Notes under the pieces: generated by a model
Told to the model about the DNA's origin: nothing
Seen by the model: only the letters and a program-made list of their open reading frames with translations
The model's database searches: none
Shown: one piece after another, positions 674 through 8,500 of the stretch
Numbering within the stretch: position 1 is the stretch's first letter
How the letters are laid out: each line of letters begins with the position of its first letter
From: Gammaproteobacteria bacterium
GTDB taxonomy: Bacteria; Pseudomonadota; Gammaproteobacteria; Burkholderiales; SHXO01
NCBI GenBank assembly: GCA_041487115.1
Contig: JBGPMS010000001.1
Coordinates: 908-64,907 of the forward strand
Direction of reading: 5' to 3'
DNA length: 64,000 bases
Program-made: the position numbers and the translations under genes

Positions 674-1933
674 TCATGATCCTAGGCCAGTAGAGATGCG
701 TTGGGATATCGCTTTGTCGATAAGCTGCTTGACTGTGGAGTCTATGTTGCGCAGCTCGAACCGCTGCATGAAGTTTAGTGGCCCAAGCTCAACAAACAGC
801 TTGCCGAGGACTTCATCGGCGAAGCTGCTCGATATCAAGGGAATGTCAGCGAAGTCAATGGTGATCCGCTGTCCTGGACACATACGAGCGAGATTCGAGA
901 GCTTAACGCGAACTGGCGCACCAGCAACGCGGCTACCAAACGATGAGCTTTCATCCTTCATTACGAAGCGTACCGCTTCCTCGTGCAGTTGCTCAAAGCG
1001 CAGCTCAACATAGTCCAGCGGCGTGTGCGGTTTGCCATTGAAGCGCAGGGCTTCCTCTAGCAAATAGGGGACTGAGAAGTCGATCTGCGCAGCGACTAAG
1101 GTACCCTCGAATGGTACCTTCTCCGTGGATACATGTAGACCATCTCTCTCAGTGAAGACCAGCTTCCCATATCCAGATTCGACTTGGAAGAACCCCTTGC
1201 TATGACTGCATATCTGGTAGCTACCAAATAGTCCGTTACCCTGGCCGATCGCCTTGTCGCGAGTTACGCCTTCGCGGATGGCGTGCTGAAGTGCTTCGGC
1301 ATCTGAGCTGAGATCGGGGCGAGCTTCGCGCAGAGTGGCCGGAATGCCGACACCGGCGTCCGCCACAATGTACTCAACCCTTTTCCTCGCGCGTTGGAAC
1401 GTTGAGACCTGAACAAGGCCGCCAATTCCGGATTGGGCATGATTCAGTACGTTGTCTGTGATTTCATTTACCGACCACTCAAGAGCTGCCAGCTCTTTGC
1501 GCTCTAGATTCGGGATGGCACCAAGGATCGCATTGACGATGCGATTAACTGCTTGCTGCTGCTCATGAGCGTTTCTAAACTGCGTCGCCGGAACTTGCGT
1601 GTATCCCTTGAACGCAGAGGGCGGGTTGTTCCGCGGTTCCAGGAAATGTGCCCAGTTAGCGTTCTGGAACAGGCGGGCGAGCTTGGCGTCCTTCGGCGGG
1701 AAGAGGGCTACGTCGATCTTCGCGTTCCGCAGCCTCATGACCTGAGCACAAACCGCGAGCATGGGTCCAGCGAACGCTGCAGTGCAGTCACTAAAATCTA
1801 AAATCAGGTCTTTGTATCCAGCATTCTGCACCGCGTGATGTAGACCGCCAAGCGGCCGGAGTAAGTCCTCGATGCCGAACGCACCCCTGAATACGACCTT
1901 GTTCTTGTCTCTGAAGATTCGGGTCTCAGACAT
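674..1933 (-). CDS. GHKL (histidine-kinase-like, RsbW-type) ATPase flanked by STAS-like domains (C-terminal part resembles DUF4325)
   Basis: 419-aa ORF with ATG start. Bergerat-fold motifs: N-box NEITDNVLNHA, G1 ADAGVGIP (DxGxG), G2 GQGNGLFG. N-terminal LILDFSDCTAAFAGPMLAVCAQVMRLR and C-terminal ITIDFADIPLISSSFADEVLGKLF resemble STAS/anti-sigma-antagonist folds. Family names are from memory, not from a search. Confidence 0.7.
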   Translation of the reverse strand: MSETRIFRDKNKVVFRGAFGIEDLLRPLGGLHHAVQNAGYKDLILDFSDCTAAFAGPMLAVCAQVMRLRNAKIDVALFPPKDAKLARLFQNANWAHFLEPRNNPPSAFKGYTQVPATQFRNAHEQQQAVNRIVNAILGAIPNLERKELAALEWSVNEITDNVLNHAQSGIGGLVQVSTFQRARKRVEYIVADAGVGIPATLREARPDLSSDAEALQHAIREGVTRDKAIGQGNGLFGSYQICSHSKGFFQVESGYGKLVFTERDGLHVSTEKVPFEGTLVAAQIDFSVPYLLEEALRFNGKPHTPLDYVELRFEQLHEEAVRFVMKDESSSFGSRVAGAPVRVKLSNLARMCPGQRITIDFADIPLISSSFADEVLGKLFVELGPLNFMQRFELRNIDSTVKQLIDKAISQRISTGLGS

Positions 1934-2755: not shown

Positions 2756-3613
2756 TTAGCTAACGGTACAGGCGCCGTTCTGAAAGCAGAAGCGCAACTC
2801 ACCGTCCTGCCGTGTAGTCAGCACTTTCCGCTTATCCAGTTTCCCACGAAACGGCGTGATGCCGACGCACTTGCTGTTGTAATAACCGATAGTGTTTTGC
2901 GTGTCGTACTGCTTGTAATCGTCGGAGATGATGACAATTTTTGGTTTGCAACCCCACACGTCAAAGATGTCCTCGCAGATGCCGTTCTCCCGGCCATGGT
3001 GGGCTGCGATAAGTACGTCCGTGGACCCTATGAGCTGGCGCAGCCTGGCATTTGTATTCAGCAGATGTTTCCATCCGGCCATCTCTAGGTCGCCAGGAAA
3101 GATGAATTGCACGCCCTGGATGTCGAGGTGCAGGAGAGTGCTCAGGTTGTTTTCGTCGTCAAATGCCGGGTAGGAGTTGTTGAACCACTCCAGGTGCACC
3201 CCAGCAAACTGCGGTGACATAGCACCGACGGCAGGTGGACCGAAGTTGTCCAGAGAACCTACCAACGCGTCGATGCCCTTGCCCATCCCGTCCTCGGTTT
3301 TCAGGAGCTTGATCGTTTGCGGCGATACCGACTTGTTTCTGATCATCCAGCCAATATTGATGCCCCGCGCGAGCATGTTTGGGTAGCCCGAGACGTGGTC
3401 TTCGTCGTAATTCGTTATAGCTAGAAGATCGATGTAGCTGATGCCCAGACCCTTAAGGTGATCACCCGGGTACCAGGGCATGGATCCGTTGTGACCACAA
3501 TCAACCATTAGTCGGCCGAACCCGCCGCCGACCAAAGGAGCCGTGAGGAGCCCGCAAGCGCCGTGTTCGACATCGAAAATCTGTAGCAGGGCATCATGAA
3601 TCGGTATCATCAT
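2756..3613 (-). CDS. MBL-fold metallo-hydrolase, ComEC/Rec2-like subtype with variant metal motif
   Basis: 285-aa ORF. MVDCGHNG, then AITNYDEDHVSG where HxHxDH normally sits, then FPGD and LIAAHHGRENG (the HHG signature of ComEC-type MBL domains). Confidence 0.65.
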   Translation of the reverse strand: MMIPIHDALLQIFDVEHGACGLLTAPLVGGGFGRLMVDCGHNGSMPWYPGDHLKGLGISYIDLLAITNYDEDHVSGYPNMLARGINIGWMIRNKSVSPQTIKLLKTEDGMGKGIDALVGSLDNFGPPAVGAMSPQFAGVHLEWFNNSYPAFDDENNLSTLLHLDIQGVQFIFPGDLEMAGWKHLLNTNARLRQLIGSTDVLIAAHHGRENGICEDIFDVWGCKPKIVIISDDYKQYDTQNTIGYYNSKCVGITPFRGKLDKRKVLTTRQDGELRFCFQNGACTVS

Positions 3614-3628
3614 CAGGCAGGCCTCGTG

Positions 3629-4288
3629 CTATTTGGAGTAGGCGAAAGCTGTAAAGAGCTCGACCGCATACAATCTCAAGAACTTCAGATACCGGAAGAT
3701 CATTCCAATCCCAATGATGAGCGCAGCGAGCGCCCAGTAAGCGTCCTCTTTAGTTCCCGAACCCCACTGATATGACCATGCAAGAACAGTCGCATCGATG
3801 AAGGCCACGAGTGCGATGTTTCGACAGAAACCGTAAAGATTCAGGAAGTCGGTTAGTCTTGCGATCACTGCCGGCATTGCGCGGGCGTGCTGATAAGCTA
3901 GCCAAAATAATGCCTCTCCGGGCCGCGACACCCCCAGTGCTTGGCCTTTGTCCAGCGCCGCTTTTCGTAGCTCGGTGGGAAGCGCCTGGAAATAACTCGG
4001 AGAGAGCCTACGGACGCACTTCCAGGCCTTGGCATCTCCAAAGAGCACGTTCCGGGGATAGCCAAGTAGCTGTCCCGTCAGGAAGCGCTCGAATATCACG
4101 GACGACATGCCAGCGACCAGATGTCCGACGATGTATGCGGCGGAGACAGCGATGATGCCCTGAACGATGGTCCACGAATTGCGCATCAGGAGGTCTGTAC
4201 CTGCTACATGGTCGAGCGCGAATAGCAGCAGAAAACCGGCCGACAGATACCCCCAGAAGTCGTAGGAAGAAAAGGGAATCCGATCCAC
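3629..4288 (-). CDS. small integral membrane protein (about 4 predicted TM helices), function unknown
   Basis: 219-aa ORF with GTG start. Hydrophobic stretches FWGYLSAGFLLLFAL, IVQGIIAVSAAYIVGHLVAGM, NIALVAFIDATVLAW, YWALAALIIGIGMIF. It is 15 nt upstream of the MBL gene on the same strand. Confidence 0.55.
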   Translation of the reverse strand: MDRIPFSSYDFWGYLSAGFLLLFALDHVAGTDLLMRNSWTIVQGIIAVSAAYIVGHLVAGMSSVIFERFLTGQLLGYPRNVLFGDAKAWKCVRRLSPSYFQALPTELRKAALDKGQALGVSRPGEALFWLAYQHARAMPAVIARLTDFLNLYGFCRNIALVAFIDATVLAWSYQWGSGTKEDAYWALAALIIGIGMIFRYLKFLRLYAVELFTAFAYSK

Positions 4289-4343: not shown

Positions 4344-5510
4344 CTAGTGTAGTGCTTCGTAGTTAATGGAACCAATCGTGATGTGTCGTATCACAAGGGT
4401 TGTGAGACTGCTTGGGAGGCGACGATGCGAGTGGCAAGCGCGATTGAACTGGACGAAGTGCAGCGCAAGGAACTGATGAAGCTGGCGCATTCGAACACGA
4501 CCGAGGTGCGTCTGGCACGCCGCGCCGGCATTGTGCTGCTGGCCGCAGATGGGTTGGACAACCGCGAGATCGCCGAGTTGATGGGGGTGGGGCGCATTCA
4601 GGTGGGCCGTTGGCGTGAGCGCTACGCGGCTGGTGGGGTGAAAGCCATCGAGCGGGATTTGCCGCGCGCGGGGCGCAAACCCAAAGTGGACCCTGTCGAG
4701 ATCGTGCGCTTGACCACGCAGACCAAGCCGCGAGGTGCTACCCAGTGGAGCACCCGCACGCTCGCCGCGGTGGCGGGAGTGAGCGACACCACGGTGCATC
4801 GCATCTGGAAGGCGCGCGGGCTCAAGCCACACCGGGTCAAGCGCTTCAAGGTATCTCGCGATCCCAAGTTCGTCGAGAAGCTCGAGGATATCGTGGGTTT
4901 GTATATGTCCCCGCCCGAGCATGCACTGGTGCTGTGTTGCGACGAGAAGAGCCAAGTGCAGGCGCTCGATCGCACCCAGCCCGGTCTGCCGATGAAGCCC
5001 GGGCGTGCCGCCACCATGACTCATGACTACAAGCGCAACGGCACCACCACCCTGTTTGCGGCGATGAATACTCTCGATGGTACGGTCATCTCGCGCTGCG
5101 AGCAACGCCATCGCCACATCGAGTGGCTTACCTTTCTGCGTCAGATCAACCGCGAAACCGCACCGGACAAGGCGCTTCATCTGATCTGCGACAACTACGC
5201 CACCCACAAGCACCCCAAGGTCAAGGAGTGGCTGGCCAAGCACCCACGCATCCATGTTCATTTCACTCCGACCTCGGCCTCCTGGCTCAACATGGTCGAG
5301 CGCTTCTTCCGTGACATCACCACCGAACGCCTGCGCAATGGCGTGTTTCGCAACGTCCCAGAGCTAACCGCCACCATCAAGGAGTACATCGCCTTGCACA
5401 ACAAAAATCCCAAACCCTTCGTCTGGACTGCCAAGGCCAAGGACATCCTGGCCAAAGTCATCCGCGCCAACAGTCGGTTAAGTTCCAAACAGAACGAAGC
5501 ACTACACTAG
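4344..5510 (+). mobile_element. IS630-family insertion sequence, apparently intact
   Basis: Perfect 17-bp terminal inverted repeats: CTAGTGTAGTGCTTCGT at 4344-4360 and ACGAAGCACTACACTAG at 5494-5510. Both ends lie in CTAG with a TA on each side (4345-4346, 5508-5509), the known IS630 target and duplication. One transposase ORF inside. Confidence 0.9.
4425..5510 (+). CDS. IS630-family DDE transposase
   Basis: N-terminal HTH region (EVRLARRAGIVLLAADGLDNREIAELMGVGRIQVGRWRERY) and DDE region (LCCDEKSQVQAL...LICDNYATHKH...WLNMVERFF). ATG at 4425 is preceded by GGAGG; the track start at 4383 is a GTG. Confidence 0.9.
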   Translation: MRVASAIELDEVQRKELMKLAHSNTTEVRLARRAGIVLLAADGLDNREIAELMGVGRIQVGRWRERYAAGGVKAIERDLPRAGRKPKVDPVEIVRLTTQTKPRGATQWSTRTLAAVAGVSDTTVHRIWKARGLKPHRVKRFKVSRDPKFVEKLEDIVGLYMSPPEHALVLCCDEKSQVQALDRTQPGLPMKPGRAATMTHDYKRNGTTTLFAAMNTLDGTVISRCEQRHRHIEWLTFLRQINRETAPDKALHLICDNYATHKHPKVKEWLAKHPRIHVHFTPTSASWLNMVERFFRDITTERLRNGVFRNVPELTATIKEYIALHNKNPKPFVWTAKAKDILAKVIRANSRLSSKQNEALH

Positions 5511-8500
5511 ATGCCTCTGCGCTTAGCCTTTCATCTGTTCAAGCACGGCTCGCTGTGGGTCTACCGACTGTCGACCTTCGCGGTGCTGGCGGCGGGGGTG
5601 TTGTTTGCCTCCATGGTGCTGCTGCTGCGCTACTGGGTGTTGCCCCATATCGACGACTACCGGCCGAATATCGTCGCCGGATTGACACGGGCGGCGCACC
5701 AGCGCATTGAGATCGGCCGCATCGAAGGGGAGTGGGACGGCTACCGGCCGCGGCTCATCCTGCGCGACGTGCGCTTGCTCGACGAGCGAGGACAGGAGCG
5801 GTTGAAGCTCGAGGAGGTCGACAGCACGCTCGCGTGGCTGTCGCTGTTTGCCGGGGAGCTGCGCTTCTACTCCATCGAGCTGGAACAGCTCAGCCTGGAG
5901 ATCCGCATCGACACCGGCGGTAACCTCTTGGTAGCGGGCATACCGGTCGGGCAGTCCGGCGGCGAGCGGGGGTTGGGCGACTGGCTGCTGGAGCAGCACC
6001 GCATCGTCGTGCGCGACTCGGAGCTGATCTGGGTCGACGAGAGGCTGGGCGGCACGCCGCTGGAGCTGGAGGATGTGGAAGTGCTGGTCGAGCAGCGCTT
6101 CTGGACCCATCGCTTCGGCCTGCGCGCCAAGCCGCCGCTCGAGGTCGCCTCGCCGATCGACTTCCGCGGCGACCTGCACGGCCGCAGCTTCAGCAACCTT
6201 TCCGGCTGGGCTGGCCGCCTCTACCTCGGCATCGGATACGCCAACCTGGCGGCACTCCGGCCCTGGTTCAAGCTGCCGATGCACACGACGGAGGGTTCGG
6301 GCAGTCTGCAGATCTGGGGCACATTGCAGCGTGGGCAGCCGGGCGAAATCACCGCCGACGTGGGGCTGGCCAACGTGCACGCGCGCCTGCGCGAGGACTT
6401 GCCCGAGCTTGAGCTGTCCCACCTGCGGGGCCGCCTCGGCTGGCGTTCGGATCCGACCGGCATATCCATATGGGCGCGGGGCTTGAGTTTCACGACGCCG
6501 GACGGCGTGGACCTCCCGCCGGCGGACATCAGCTACTCGCGTACGCTGCCCGGCGCCAGCCGCCCGCTCGAATCCGAGGTTGCCTTCGACGCCGTCGAGC
6601 TCGACGCGCTGACGCGCCTGATCGACCGCCTTCCACTGGATGCCGCGCTGCGCACCCGCCTGGCCGAGGTCAACCCGCGCGGGCAGTTGCGGGATTTCCA
6701 TCTTCACTGGCGCGACAGCTTCAGCTGGAGTGGCCCTTACGATGTACGCGGGCGGTTCGAGGACGTCGCGGTCAGCCCCACCGGCTCCTTGCCGGGCATC
6801 TCTCACGTTACTGGCCGCCTTGACGGCAGCGAACGCGGCGGGTCGATCCTCCTGAACGCGGCGGCCACGGAGCTGGTCATGCCGTCGGTGTTCGTCGGGA
6901 CGCTTCCGCTGGACCGGCTCGAAGCCAGGGCGTCCTGGACCGTTTCCGGCGGCGTGCCGAACATCGCGCTCGAGCGCGTGGCCGTGTCCAACAAAGATAT
7001 CGCTGGCGAGGTATCCGGCCGCTACCAAGTGGTGCCCGGCGGTCCCGGCATCATCGATGTGAAGGGGAAGTTCGGGCAGGTCACCGGCCAGGGTGCCTGG
7101 CGCTATATCCCACTGATGGTCGCGGAGCCAGTGCGCCAGTGGTTGCGGCGCGCGATCGTATCGGTCTCCGCCAGCGATGTGCAGGTCACGCTGCGCGGCG
7201 ACCTCCGCAACTTTCCTTGGGGGCGCACCGGCGACGGCCTGTTTGAGGTGTCGGGTGCAGTCCAGGACGGAACGCTGGCCTACCATACGAGCTGGCCCAG
7301 GGTGGAAGGTCTGCAGGGCCGCATCGCGCTCCGGGGCAGCCGGCTAGAGGTCACCGCCAACGCCGGAAGCGTCTTCGGAACCAGGCTGTCGGGCGTCACT
7401 GCCCTGATCCCGGACCTCGGCTCGTCCGACCCGCTGCTGGAGGTGCACGGTGAGGCCGAGGGTCCGACCAGCGACTTCCTGCGCTTCGTACAGGAGAGCC
7501 CGGTGCAGGAGCGGGTCGGCGACCTTACCGACGGAATGCGCGCCAGCGGCCGCGGCCGTCTGAGCCTGCGCATCGACATCCCGCTGCACAGGACCGTGGA
7601 CGGGCAGGTGACGGGCACCTACGTCTTCGCCGACAACACCCTTGATGCGGGCGAGGGTCTGCCGGTGCTGGAACAACTGTCGGGCCGGCTGGTGTTCACC
7701 CAGGACGATGCCAGCCTGCGCGACGGCGCCGCCCGCGTCTACGGGGTGCCCGCCCGGTTTACCGTTGCGCGGGAGGGCTCGGGTTCGGTCCGCATCAAAG
7801 CCATGGGACAGGTCGAAGCGGCGCAGCTGCGGCGTGAGATCAACCAGCCATGGCTCGCGCACTTGACTGGCTCCACTGACTGGCAATTTGCCGCCTCCCT
7901 GGGCGGGCGGCGCCACGACTTCGTGATCGAATCCAACCTGGTGGGCATCGCCTCCTCGTTGCCTACCCCTTTTGCCAAGACCGCGAAGGAGCGGGTCGCG
8001 CTGCGCATCGAGCGGCGGGAGCGCACGCGGGCGAACGACCTCGTCACCATCGCGTACGGCGACCATCTGTCTGCCCAACTGGTGGTGGACAAGGCCGGTA
8101 AGGCGAGGATCAGCCGCGGCGAGATCGTGTTGGGGGGCACCGCACCAGCGCCTCAACGCGACGGGATCTGGATTGCCGGTGCGCTGGAACGCGTCGATCT
8201 GGACCAGTGGCAGGATCTGCTGTCGCAACCGGGCACCGGGGCAGGCGAAGGCAACGCCGGGCTCGCTGGGATCGACCTGTCGGTGTCCCTGGTGCGGGCG
8301 TTCTCCCGGGACTTTCACGACGTGAGGTTCGACGCCACCCGTAGCGAGAGCGCTTGGTCGGCGAAGCTCGACAGCCGCGAGATTACGGGAGACCTGAAAT
8401 GGCTGCCGGAGGGGGACGGGTTGCTCGTCGGCCGCTTCGGCCGCCTGGAACTGCCGCCTTCCACCGCCGAAGTGGAGCCCGAACCGGTGAACGCCCAGCC

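Follow-up and report, generated by a model that had tools for sequence, protein, structure and literature searches.

The gene at positions 674..1933, on the (-) strand, of a 64,000-nucleotide stretch of DNA from a member of the Gammaproteobacteria (contig JBGPMS010000001.1, positions 908 to 64,907; this whole stretch is called the window) encodes a 419-amino-acid protein in which a STAS domain, a GHKL core and a second, DUF4325-type STAS-like domain are joined in a single chain. Based on alignments with VapK, VapS and CapS, we conclude with high confidence that this protein is a VapK-like kinase fused to a VapS-like domain, with the acceptor site preserved. We also consider it rather probable that the protein corresponds to the CapK/CapS and VapK/VapS pair merged into one stand-alone chain, in which a signal-activated kinase would phosphorylate its own tethered STAS domain; it is probably a one-piece phosphorylation switch rather than a regulator of neighbouring genes. 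The family to which it belongs is large, widespread and uncharacterised, and is part of a recently described kind of system. The gene and the features within it are as follows.

674..1933, (-) strand: fused STAS-GHKL kinase and DUF4325/STAS substrate domain, as predicted; complete open reading frame (ORF), 419 amino acids plus stop
1580..1933, (-) strand: N-terminal STAS-fold domain, residues 1-118 (AlphaFold2 and Foldseek; collinear with the STAS domain of VapK)
1064..1579, (-) strand: GHKL (Bergerat-fold) kinase/ATPase domain, residues 119-290 (Pfam, Foldseek and hhalign)
1439..1465, (-) strand: N-box, E157-I-T-D-N161-V-L-N-H165, with the Mg/ATP-binding Asn and the catalytic Glu (translation and conservation)
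1346..1360, (-) strand: G1 box, D192-A-G-V-G196 (translation and conservation)
1223..1246, (-) strand: G2 box, G230-Q-G-N-G-L-F-G237, after the ATP-lid region (translation and conservation)
977..1063, (-) strand: linker, residues 291-319 (AlphaFold2 and alignment variability)
677..976, (-) strand: C-terminal DUF4325 / VapS-type STAS-like domain, residues 320-419 (Pfam, PDB profile search and hhalign)
824..832, (-) strand: predicted phospho-acceptor S368-S369-S370 at the N-terminus of helix alpha-2 (conservation and alignment with VapS and CapS)

An earlier note, made from the letters of this stretch, had proposed a single-chain arrangement of a Bergerat ATP-binding core flanked by two STAS-like segments. 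That layout is real, and its three domain calls are upheld by Pfam, AlphaFold2 and Foldseek. The 419-amino-acid ORF exists on the (-) strand, and all peptides quoted in the note were recovered in its translation, with SSS at 824-832, EITDNVLNH at 1439-1465 and DAGVGI...GQGNGLFG at 1223-1360. The same protein is annotated at NCBI (P0004) with 362 amino acids and a start at M58, which cuts away half of the N-terminal STAS domain. Since the family conserves residues 1-57 at the protein level, down to homologues of 43% identity, we take the 419-amino-acid form to be the real one and the 362-amino-acid call to be too short. Databases label the homologues ‘STAS-like domain-containing protein’ or, at JGI, ‘anti-sigma regulatory factor (Ser/Thr protein kinase)’. 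The full-length AlphaFold2 model, built with a 66-sequence alignment, has a mean pLDDT (predicted local distance difference test score) of 84.5 and a pTM (predicted template modelling score) of 0.73, and conservation was counted over 81 genome-encoded homologues (82 alignment rows) with a median identity of 51% to the window protein.

The GHKL core is complete and highly conserved. Pfam HATPase_c_2 matches residues 121-210 with 29.3 bits (cut-off 27.4), and HATPase_c reaches 23.7 bits, just under its cut-off of 26.4. In the model, residues 119-290 form an alpha/beta sandwich in which the lid between the G1 and G2 boxes (residues 223-232) has low pLDDT. A Foldseek search with the full model finds SpoIIAB (1thn_A) with a probability of 1.00 and a template modelling (TM) score of 0.69, and also Topo VI-B, TRAP1/Hsp90, MutL and SiaB. 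Lack of conservation of the G1 and G2 boxes had been named beforehand as a result that would speak against a Bergerat core; across the 81 homologues these boxes are invariant or nearly so. Indeed, E157, D160, N161 and H165 of the N-box are found in 81/81 homologues, as are D192 of the G1 box and G232-N-G-L235 and G237 of the G2 box, while G194 is found in 80/81 and G196 in 75/81; G277-T278 of the G3 box are likewise invariant or nearly so. The invariant or near-invariant positions of the core in this set are E152, W153, E157, D160, N161, H165, G172, D192, G194, D211, T224, G232-N-G-L235, G237 and G277. Thus, Pfam, Foldseek and conservation all bear out a complete ATP-binding core, which we infer to act as a kinase rather than as a plain ATPase.

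The N-terminal segment is a STAS-like domain, although this call needed structure prediction and Foldseek, since PDB sequence searches with the whole protein and with a profile of the N-terminal domain gave only chance-level matches. Residues 1-118 have pLDDT >90 in the full-length model, with the order strand, strand, helix, strand, short strand, helix, strand, helix, helix (b-b-a-b-a-b-a-a). The full model also matched STAS proteins (SpoIIAA 1th8_B and 1h4y_A, RsbV 6m36_D), but such a search leaves open which of the two flanks gave these matches; we therefore modelled residues 1-120 alone (pLDDT 86.8). The top 13 Foldseek matches of this isolated domain in the PDB were STAS proteins or STAS-containing chains, with probabilities up to 1.00, TM scores of 0.5-0.65 and root-mean-square deviations (rmsd) of ~3.2-3.5 Å. 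They include RsbV (6m36), SpoIIAA (1th8_B; TM 0.59/0.62, rmsd 3.2 Å), MlaB and RsbS, as well as anti-sigma-factor antagonists, a glutaminase STAS domain and the STAS domains of SLC26/prestin. At the sequence level, Pfam gives weak support, with STAS_2 matching the N-terminal domain of one homologue (P0121). The isolated-domain model and its matches thus agree with the STAS-like character that had been proposed for this segment.

The conserved positions of the N-terminal domain do not include an acceptor. P80, F89, N91 and W94 are invariant or nearly so in both the 66-sequence alignment and the 81-homologue genome set, and C50, which follows strand beta-3, is invariant in the 66-sequence alignment (A1) and present in 68/82 rows of the genome set. 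The position equivalent to the acceptor is A55, with P, A or Q in homologues and Ser in only 5/82 rows. Judged from these residues, the N-terminal STAS domain is not a phospho-acceptor and matches instead the kinase's own regulatory STAS domain in VapK and CapK. The two STAS-like domains do not derive from a recent internal duplication, because hhalign found no significant similarity between them.

The C-terminal domain, which had been called a DUF4325-like STAS segment, is matched above the cut-off by Pfam DUF4325 (‘STAS-like domain of unknown function’) at residues 342-402, with 44.2 bits (cut-off 23; E 1.5e-11), and Pfam STAS matches the same domain of one homologue (P0183), which provides weak additional support at the sequence level. 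In the model, residues 320-415 form a compact alpha/beta domain in which helix alpha-2 begins at residue 369, at the SSS motif. It is joined to the GHKL core by a stretch that is the most variable of the alignment and has pLDDT <50 at residues 305-317; this linker of ~30 residues, partly disordered in the model, could serve as a flexible tether. Each Ser of S368-S370 is kept in 79-80 of 80 homologues, and the motif is followed by an invariant F-A-D-E. The invariant or near-invariant positions of the domain are S334, R335, N347, S368-S-S-(F)-A-D-E374, K378, G384, Q411 and R412 (81 homologues).

Proteins that resemble this domain are also encoded on their own by phages. Free DUF4325/VapS-like proteins of ~90-110 amino acids, e.g. 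A0A223LC21 from Bacillus phage PBS1 and A0A8S5RZ86, were found among BFVD matches, with TM scores up to 0.85 to the C-terminal domain, and a 233-amino-acid viral protein (J7KH07) matches ~240 residues of the model. Such free phage proteins could be substrates or decoys for kinases of this kind.

The closest characterised relatives are the proteins of two systems, CapK/CapS and VapKSC, described in Chambers et al., EMBO J 2026 (PMC13373217). CapK and CapS are a DNA-damage-activated kinase and a repressor that together control immune operons; CapK, with the layout HTH-STAS-GHKL (HTH, helix-turn-helix), phosphorylates S54 of CapS, which breaks the CapS dimer and de-represses the adjacent immune operons (PMC13373217). 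VapK, with the layout STAS-GHKL, is proposed to phosphorylate Ser48 of the STAS antitoxin VapS and so to free the PIN toxin VapC; the S48E variant of VapS releases VapC, and the VapKSC operon, of which 289 were reported, protects E. coli against a phage (PMC13373217). In both cases, the acceptor Ser lies buried where the protein makes its functional contact, namely in dimer interface 1 of CapS and in the contact of VapS with VapC, and kinase activity is experimental for CapK and inferred for VapK from mutants and an AlphaFold 3 (AF3) model (PMC13373217). We took the sequences of VapK, VapS, CapK and CapS from the supplements of this paper (PMC13373217), that of VapK from the authors' AF3 model file.

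The window protein aligns with both halves of these systems. The profile of the 82-sequence family matches VapK by hhalign with a probability of 97.2% (E 4.4e-11) over 245 collinear columns, which span family residues 22-286 and VapK residues 25-290 of 302, from the STAS domain through the end of the GHKL domain; the 66-sequence profile gives an E-value of 1.6e-5. The GHKL domain alone matches VapK with a probability of 96.9% and CapK with 95.6% (range 95-96%), and its N-box aligns with CapK ‘ELIGNVRDH’; this motif includes the conserved active-site Asn that was mutated in PMC13373217. For the C-terminal domain, a PDB-wide profile search gave one meaningful match, Escherichia VapS (9z7o, E 0.005), and VapS itself matches Pfam DUF4325 with 62.7 bits (E 2.7e-17). 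Similarly, hhalign matches the C-terminal domain to VapS (E ~4e-5) and, weakly but collinearly, to CapS (E 0.001-0.03). In these alignments, VapS S48 (residue 66 in PDB chain numbering, in which the chain has 134 residues versus 116 in the native protein) falls on S369, and CapS S54 (‘DSSF’) falls on S370 (‘SSSF’). Thus, a conserved phosphorylatable residue, which the earlier note had suggested looking for in either flank, is found in the C-terminal SSS motif, where SpoIIAA, VapS and CapS are phosphorylated, but not in the N-terminal domain. The kinship with RsbW and RsbV that the note had drawn gives way to one with the CapK and VapK kinases and the VapS and CapS substrates; the NCBIfam spIIAB model reaches only 16.3 bits against a cut-off of 135.

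The likeness to VapK extends to the STAS-GHKL layout, the collinear residues 22-286, the N, G1, G2 and G3 boxes and a Cys after strand beta-3 (C50 here, C52 in VapK), and the likeness to VapS, which is the top match of the C-terminal domain among PDB sequences, to the DUF4325 STAS fold and the acceptor position (S48 at S369). The window protein differs from VapKSC in that kinase and substrate, separate there, are one polypeptide; in that the C-terminal inhibitory tail of VapS is not evident; and in that none of the three adjacent window genes encodes a PIN domain, which is found in only 2/137 immediate neighbours of the family. With CapK it shares a STAS domain N-terminal to the kinase and a homologous GHKL N-box and G1 region, but it has no Pfam match to an HTH family and no extra domain in the model, whereas CapS carries a winged HTH. 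We therefore expect no DNA-binding output, since there is neither an HTH on the kinase part nor a winged HTH on the substrate part. The CapKS genes, moreover, lie upstream of the operon that they regulate, whereas the window gene is the last of a co-directional cluster.

The older partner-switching systems share both folds (1thn_A, probability 1.0, TM 0.69; 1th8_B and 6m36, probability 1.0) and the acceptor position, since in SpoIIAB-SpoIIAA and RsbW-RsbV a GHKL Ser kinase phosphorylates a Ser at the N-terminus of STAS helix alpha-2. There, however, kinase and substrate are small proteins in their own right, and their genes are accompanied by one for a sigma factor and usually also by one for a PP2C phosphatase, all of which are missing here; the window protein, in turn, has an additional N-terminal STAS domain. 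The contrast drawn by the earlier note, between separate proteins in the classical systems and a fused GHKL-STAS protein here, holds in that the fusion is real, but the fusion is not unprecedented. In Rv1364c of M. tuberculosis, a single chain with the layout PAS-PP2C-kinase-STAS, the kinase domain phosphorylates the STAS domain at Ser-600 (PMC9138534). The principle of joining a GHKL-type kinase to its STAS substrate within one polypeptide is therefore not new (PMC9138534); Rv1364c differs in its PAS and PP2C domains and its tie to SigF, where the window protein has an N-terminal STAS domain and belongs to the VapK/DUF4325 lineage. What is new here is this lineage and the minimal three-domain, effector-less format.

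The fused form is abundant. A word-indexed search returned >2,100 homologues, and among the 120 matches listed, nearly all are 410-420 amino acids long with ~99% query coverage. An exhaustive hidden Markov model (HMM) search of 1.84 billion cluster representatives (clusters at 50% identity) gave 3,987 matches at E <= 1e-3, 1,193 at E <= 1e-10 and 582, almost all of ~420 amino acids, at E <= 1e-30; the best 150 HMM matches are almost all 405-440 amino acids long and align end-to-end. A scan with one genome per species found 143 relatives, and the 80 that we kept come from Beta-, Gamma-, Alpha- and Deltaproteobacteria, Nitrospira, Acidobacteriota, Gemmatimonadota, Armatimonadota and Myxococcota. 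Searches of plasmid and phage records yielded only distant relatives, at ~30% identity.

One of these plasmid relatives is split. On Alicyclobacillus plasmid pAACI02 (L089 540-1748), one tblastn segment spans two annotated genes in the same frame: a 297-amino-acid kinase-like ORF ends in an in-frame stop, which is followed by two more codons and then by a 102-amino-acid ‘STAS-like domain-containing protein’ with IPSSFADEVFGKL. A 92-amino-acid gene of the sigma70-region-4/LuxR-type HTH kind precedes the two. The arrangement, seen only on pAACI02, may have arisen by a recent nonsense mutation, may be a true pair of genes or may be a candidate for read-through, and it indicates that fission or fusion of the kinase-STAS unit has occurred.

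The module is also found within larger proteins. Positions 109-393 of 1750 of the PADLOC DrmA model PDLC02567 match residues 119-413, that is, the GHKL and DUF4325 domains (E 1e-32), so that one variant of the DISARM helicase carries this same module N-terminally; neither the helicase nor the other ~1350 positions of the model have a counterpart in the window protein, and the DISARM partner genes DrmB, DrmC and methylase were not seen beside the window gene, the adjacent genes being PDC-M48-like and DUF6602. One 855-amino-acid relative (P0249) extends past the three-domain core into CSD, NusB-like and NUDIX domains. The extension may be a true fusion, in which case it hints at chemistry on nucleic acids or nucleotides, or it may stem from an error in gene calling; as a single case we give it low weight.

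To find a conserved partner, we clustered all ORFs of >=80 amino acids within 6 kb on either side at 80 loci, all against all. No cluster occurs at >5 loci, and the few that recur (<=5/80 loci) come from related genomes. The 137 immediate neighbours fall in 136 Pfam families, none of which is seen >4 times, and neither a sigma factor nor a PP2C phosphatase is a recurrent neighbour at the 80 loci. Similarly, clustering found no conserved small ORF (30-130 amino acids) or upstream DNA motif beyond close relatives. The gene is an autonomous unit. Some of the sampled loci have defence or mobile genes beside it, with a patatin, a CD-NTase (CBASS) and a transposase at one, GmrSD_N, NERD and ParE at another, and MazE with a PIN protein at a third. 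Strong PADLOC matches of many kinds are seen among the neighbours: type I restriction enzymes at 3 loci, PDC-S54 and PbeA at 2 loci each, and DpdF, Upx, HEC-04, PsyrT, HerA, type II methyltransferases and PDC-M72A once each. A DNA-repair gene directly adjoins the gene in 3/8 Pfam-annotated contexts (RecJ, L001; UvrB, L002; Mfd, L085); we rejected this linkage as a pattern, as no such cluster recurs in the 80-locus clustering, and it may be chance.

The gene is also carried by phages. Two P2-like prophages (uncultivated viral genomes, UViGs, of IMG/VR; L091 5995-7248 and L092) each have a single inserted gene for a full-length member (57-58% identity), with Phage_tail_S, the tail-completion gene, on one side and the Baseplate_J/tail-fibre genes on the other, which is a typical accessory (‘moron’) position within the structural module. 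More distant GHKL-DUF4325 proteins are found on large viral contigs beside GmrSD-like genes and beside ResIII and endonuclease genes.

In the window itself, the gene lies within a ~4 kb stretch of 55-57% GC, while the rest of the window has 64-69% GC. Three genes share this low-GC island with it.

2040-2687, (-) strand: DUF6602 / PD-(D/E)xK protein, 215 amino acids (sub-threshold DUF6602 match; PADLOC PD-(D/E)xK/NucC-like matches)
2756-3613, (-) strand: metallo-beta-lactamase (MBL)-fold protein, 285 amino acids (PADLOC PDC-M48B, E 2e-57)
3629-4288, (-) strand: membrane protein, 219 amino acids (weak PDC-M48A and Csx27 matches)

The membrane and MBL pair (2756-4288) fits the PADLOC candidate defence system PDC-M48, and the product of 2040-2687 may be a stand-alone nuclease effector, so that the island looks like a small defence island of up to three separate modules. 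The earlier note had suggested that the switch gates the neighbouring hydrolases, and phosphorylation-dependent partner switching that controls the DUF6602 protein, the membrane and MBL pair, or both, would be consistent with several aspects of the locus: the four genes share a strand and a single low-GC island and are only short distances apart, the neighbours resemble defence effectors, and both CapK/CapS and VapK/VapS do control adjacent effectors (PMC13373217). If the protein were such a local regulator, we would expect the same neighbours at other loci. By tblastn, the DUF6602 gene is near family members at 0/84 other loci, and the MBL and membrane pair is near at only 1/84 (L032 12803-14328, 52-64% identity), where it lies 3.5 kb away in a different order; consistent co-occurrence with the PDC-M48A/PDC-M48B pair, the mark of membership in PDC-M48, is thus not seen, and the PADLOC definition of PDC-M48, a candidate of two genes (A+B), includes no kinase. 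The protein moreover has no DNA-binding domain, and its gene is downstream of the three others. Since there is no conserved neighbour and the gene is an accessory gene in P2-like prophages, gating of the adjacent hydrolases is not supported, and we regard a local regulator as very unlikely.

Two other explanations do not depend on the neighbouring genes. The protein could be an anti-sigma-type partner switcher like RsbW or SpoIIAB, whose kinase sequesters a sigma factor or regulator encoded elsewhere while the tethered STAS domain acts as antagonist. The folds match SpoIIAB-SpoIIAA and RsbW-RsbV, Pfam HATPase_c_2 is the family of anti-sigma kinases, the JGI label points the same way, Rv1364c is a precedent, and the split version on pAACI02 is preceded by the sigma70-region-4/LuxR-type HTH gene. 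We nevertheless consider this explanation unlikely, based on the lack of a recurrent sigma factor or PP2C neighbour, the spIIAB score far under its cut-off, the greater closeness of VapK and CapK in sequence, and the patchy distribution across phyla at islands and prophage accessory positions. Alternatively, the core could be a GHKL ATPase clamp or conformational switch like those of MutL, MORC, Hsp90 and Topo VI-B, with STAS-like domains that bind a ligand or nucleic acid and serines that are structural. A Glu-x3-Asn N-box is common to GHL ATPases, and the fusion protein with CSD, NusB and NUDIX domains gives a hint of nucleic-acid chemistry. Although Topo VI-B and TRAP1/Hsp90 have the lowest E-values with the full model, their alignments have an rmsd of 14-20 Å and a TM score of ~0.2, compared to 0.69 (probability 1.0) for SpoIIAB. 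No transducer/S5 domain with a catalytic Lys follows the core in the AlphaFold2 model; the homology to VapK and CapK is collinear, and CapK is experimentally a kinase (PMC13373217); and the three invariant serines lie exactly at the acceptor position. A clamp is therefore quite unlikely, in our judgement.

The single-chain kinase and substrate suggests a mechanism, and the self-contained phospho-switch that had been proposed is a reasonable reading of the protein. Residues 1-290 would be a VapK-like module in which the regulatory, non-acceptor STAS domain packs against a catalytically intact GHKL Ser kinase, and residues 320-419 would be a VapS-type STAS domain joined to it by the flexible linker of ~30 residues. 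In the resting state, the C-terminal STAS domain would hold a partner via the surface around the invariant SSSFADE motif, and this partner might be another protein, bound in trans, or else the face of the kinase, in its own subunit or in a second one. The N-terminal STAS/GHKL unit would sense an activating signal, which, if CapK and VapK are a guide, could be single-stranded DNA (ssDNA) from DNA damage or phage infection, a trigger that we regard as possible rather than likely. The kinase would then phosphorylate S369 or S370, in cis or across a dimer, and we hold self-phosphorylation at the SSS motif to be somewhat more probable than its absence. As in CapS and VapS, the added charge might break the STAS-mediated contact of the SSSFADE surface, and the switch would flip. 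With no neighbouring gene conserved, there is also no sign of a dedicated phosphatase, and this fits a one-way trigger, by analogy with CapKS and VapKSC, rather than reversible partner switching.

Given that the protein lacks both an effector domain and a fixed partner, its output could take two main forms: the freed kinase or STAS surface may act on a conserved host or phage target, or the oligomeric state of the protein itself may be the signal. We give a role in defence or stress an even chance. A more specific version, on which we place only tentative weight, is a single-gene sensor-switch of immunity or stress carried on islands and prophages, whose released STAS domain or kinase acts on a conserved target and for which the phage DUF4325 proteins could be decoys; the freed kinase or STAS domain could in this case sequester or phosphorylate a conserved host or phage target without a dedicated effector.

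Several observations weigh against a VapK-like kinase switch with a role in defence. The lowest E-values in the full-model Foldseek search belong to ATPases, Topo VI-B and TRAP1, and not to kinases. The N-terminal STAS domain alone matches VapK with an E-value of 0.008 and CapK with 5e-4, so that this link rests on full-length collinearity and fold. The aromatic residue that contacts ssDNA (W68 in CapK, F54 in VapK) has no clear counterpart, the aligned position being the variable A52, although F54 of the window protein, two residues past A52, is F/Y in 65/82 alignment rows. Because the position aligned with VapK F54 lacks a conserved aromatic, we keep ssDNA as the signal as a hypothesis only. 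The protein has no effector domain and no conserved partner, many of the loci lie among housekeeping genes (UvrB, Mfd, RecJ and metabolic genes), and sequence conservation of the family is unusually high for a defence protein. On the other side stand the accessory and defence-type contexts, namely the low-GC island beside tRNA-Met with its IS630-family element, the position in P2-like prophages, and the strong PADLOC matches, which as a raw share make up ~1/10 of the immediate neighbours.

The protein is a third layout of the parts of CapKS and VapKSC, in which a single chain holds both kinase and substrate and neither an effector nor a fixed neighbour goes with it. It was only in 2026 that pairs of a GHKL kinase and a STAS protein were shown to couple DNA damage or phage infection to the expression of immune operons (CapKS) and to toxin release (VapKSC). 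The family, with 582 clusters at 50% identity from many phyla, exceeds the 289 vapKSC operons, and is known to databases only as ‘STAS-like/DUF4325 domain-containing protein’. If the protein does phosphorylate itself, it would offer partner switching in a minimal form that is easy to test, with one protein, three serines and one catalytic Asn, and its output would reveal what such switches do without a dedicated effector. The analysis also corrects likely annotation errors, namely the 362-amino-acid gene call, the ‘anti-sigma factor’ label and partial DrmA matches in defence-finder pipelines.

The low-GC island has a tRNA gene immediately to its left and an insertion sequence at its right edge. 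Scans of the island for promoters and terminators found no more than in shuffled sequence.

320-395, (+) strand: tRNA-Met
4344-5510: IS630-family insertion sequence, with 29-nucleotide terminal inverted repeats at 4344-4372 and 5482-5510
4383-5510: DDE_3 transposase, within the IS630-family element

The IS630-family element abuts a 1278-amino-acid ORF that starts at 5511.

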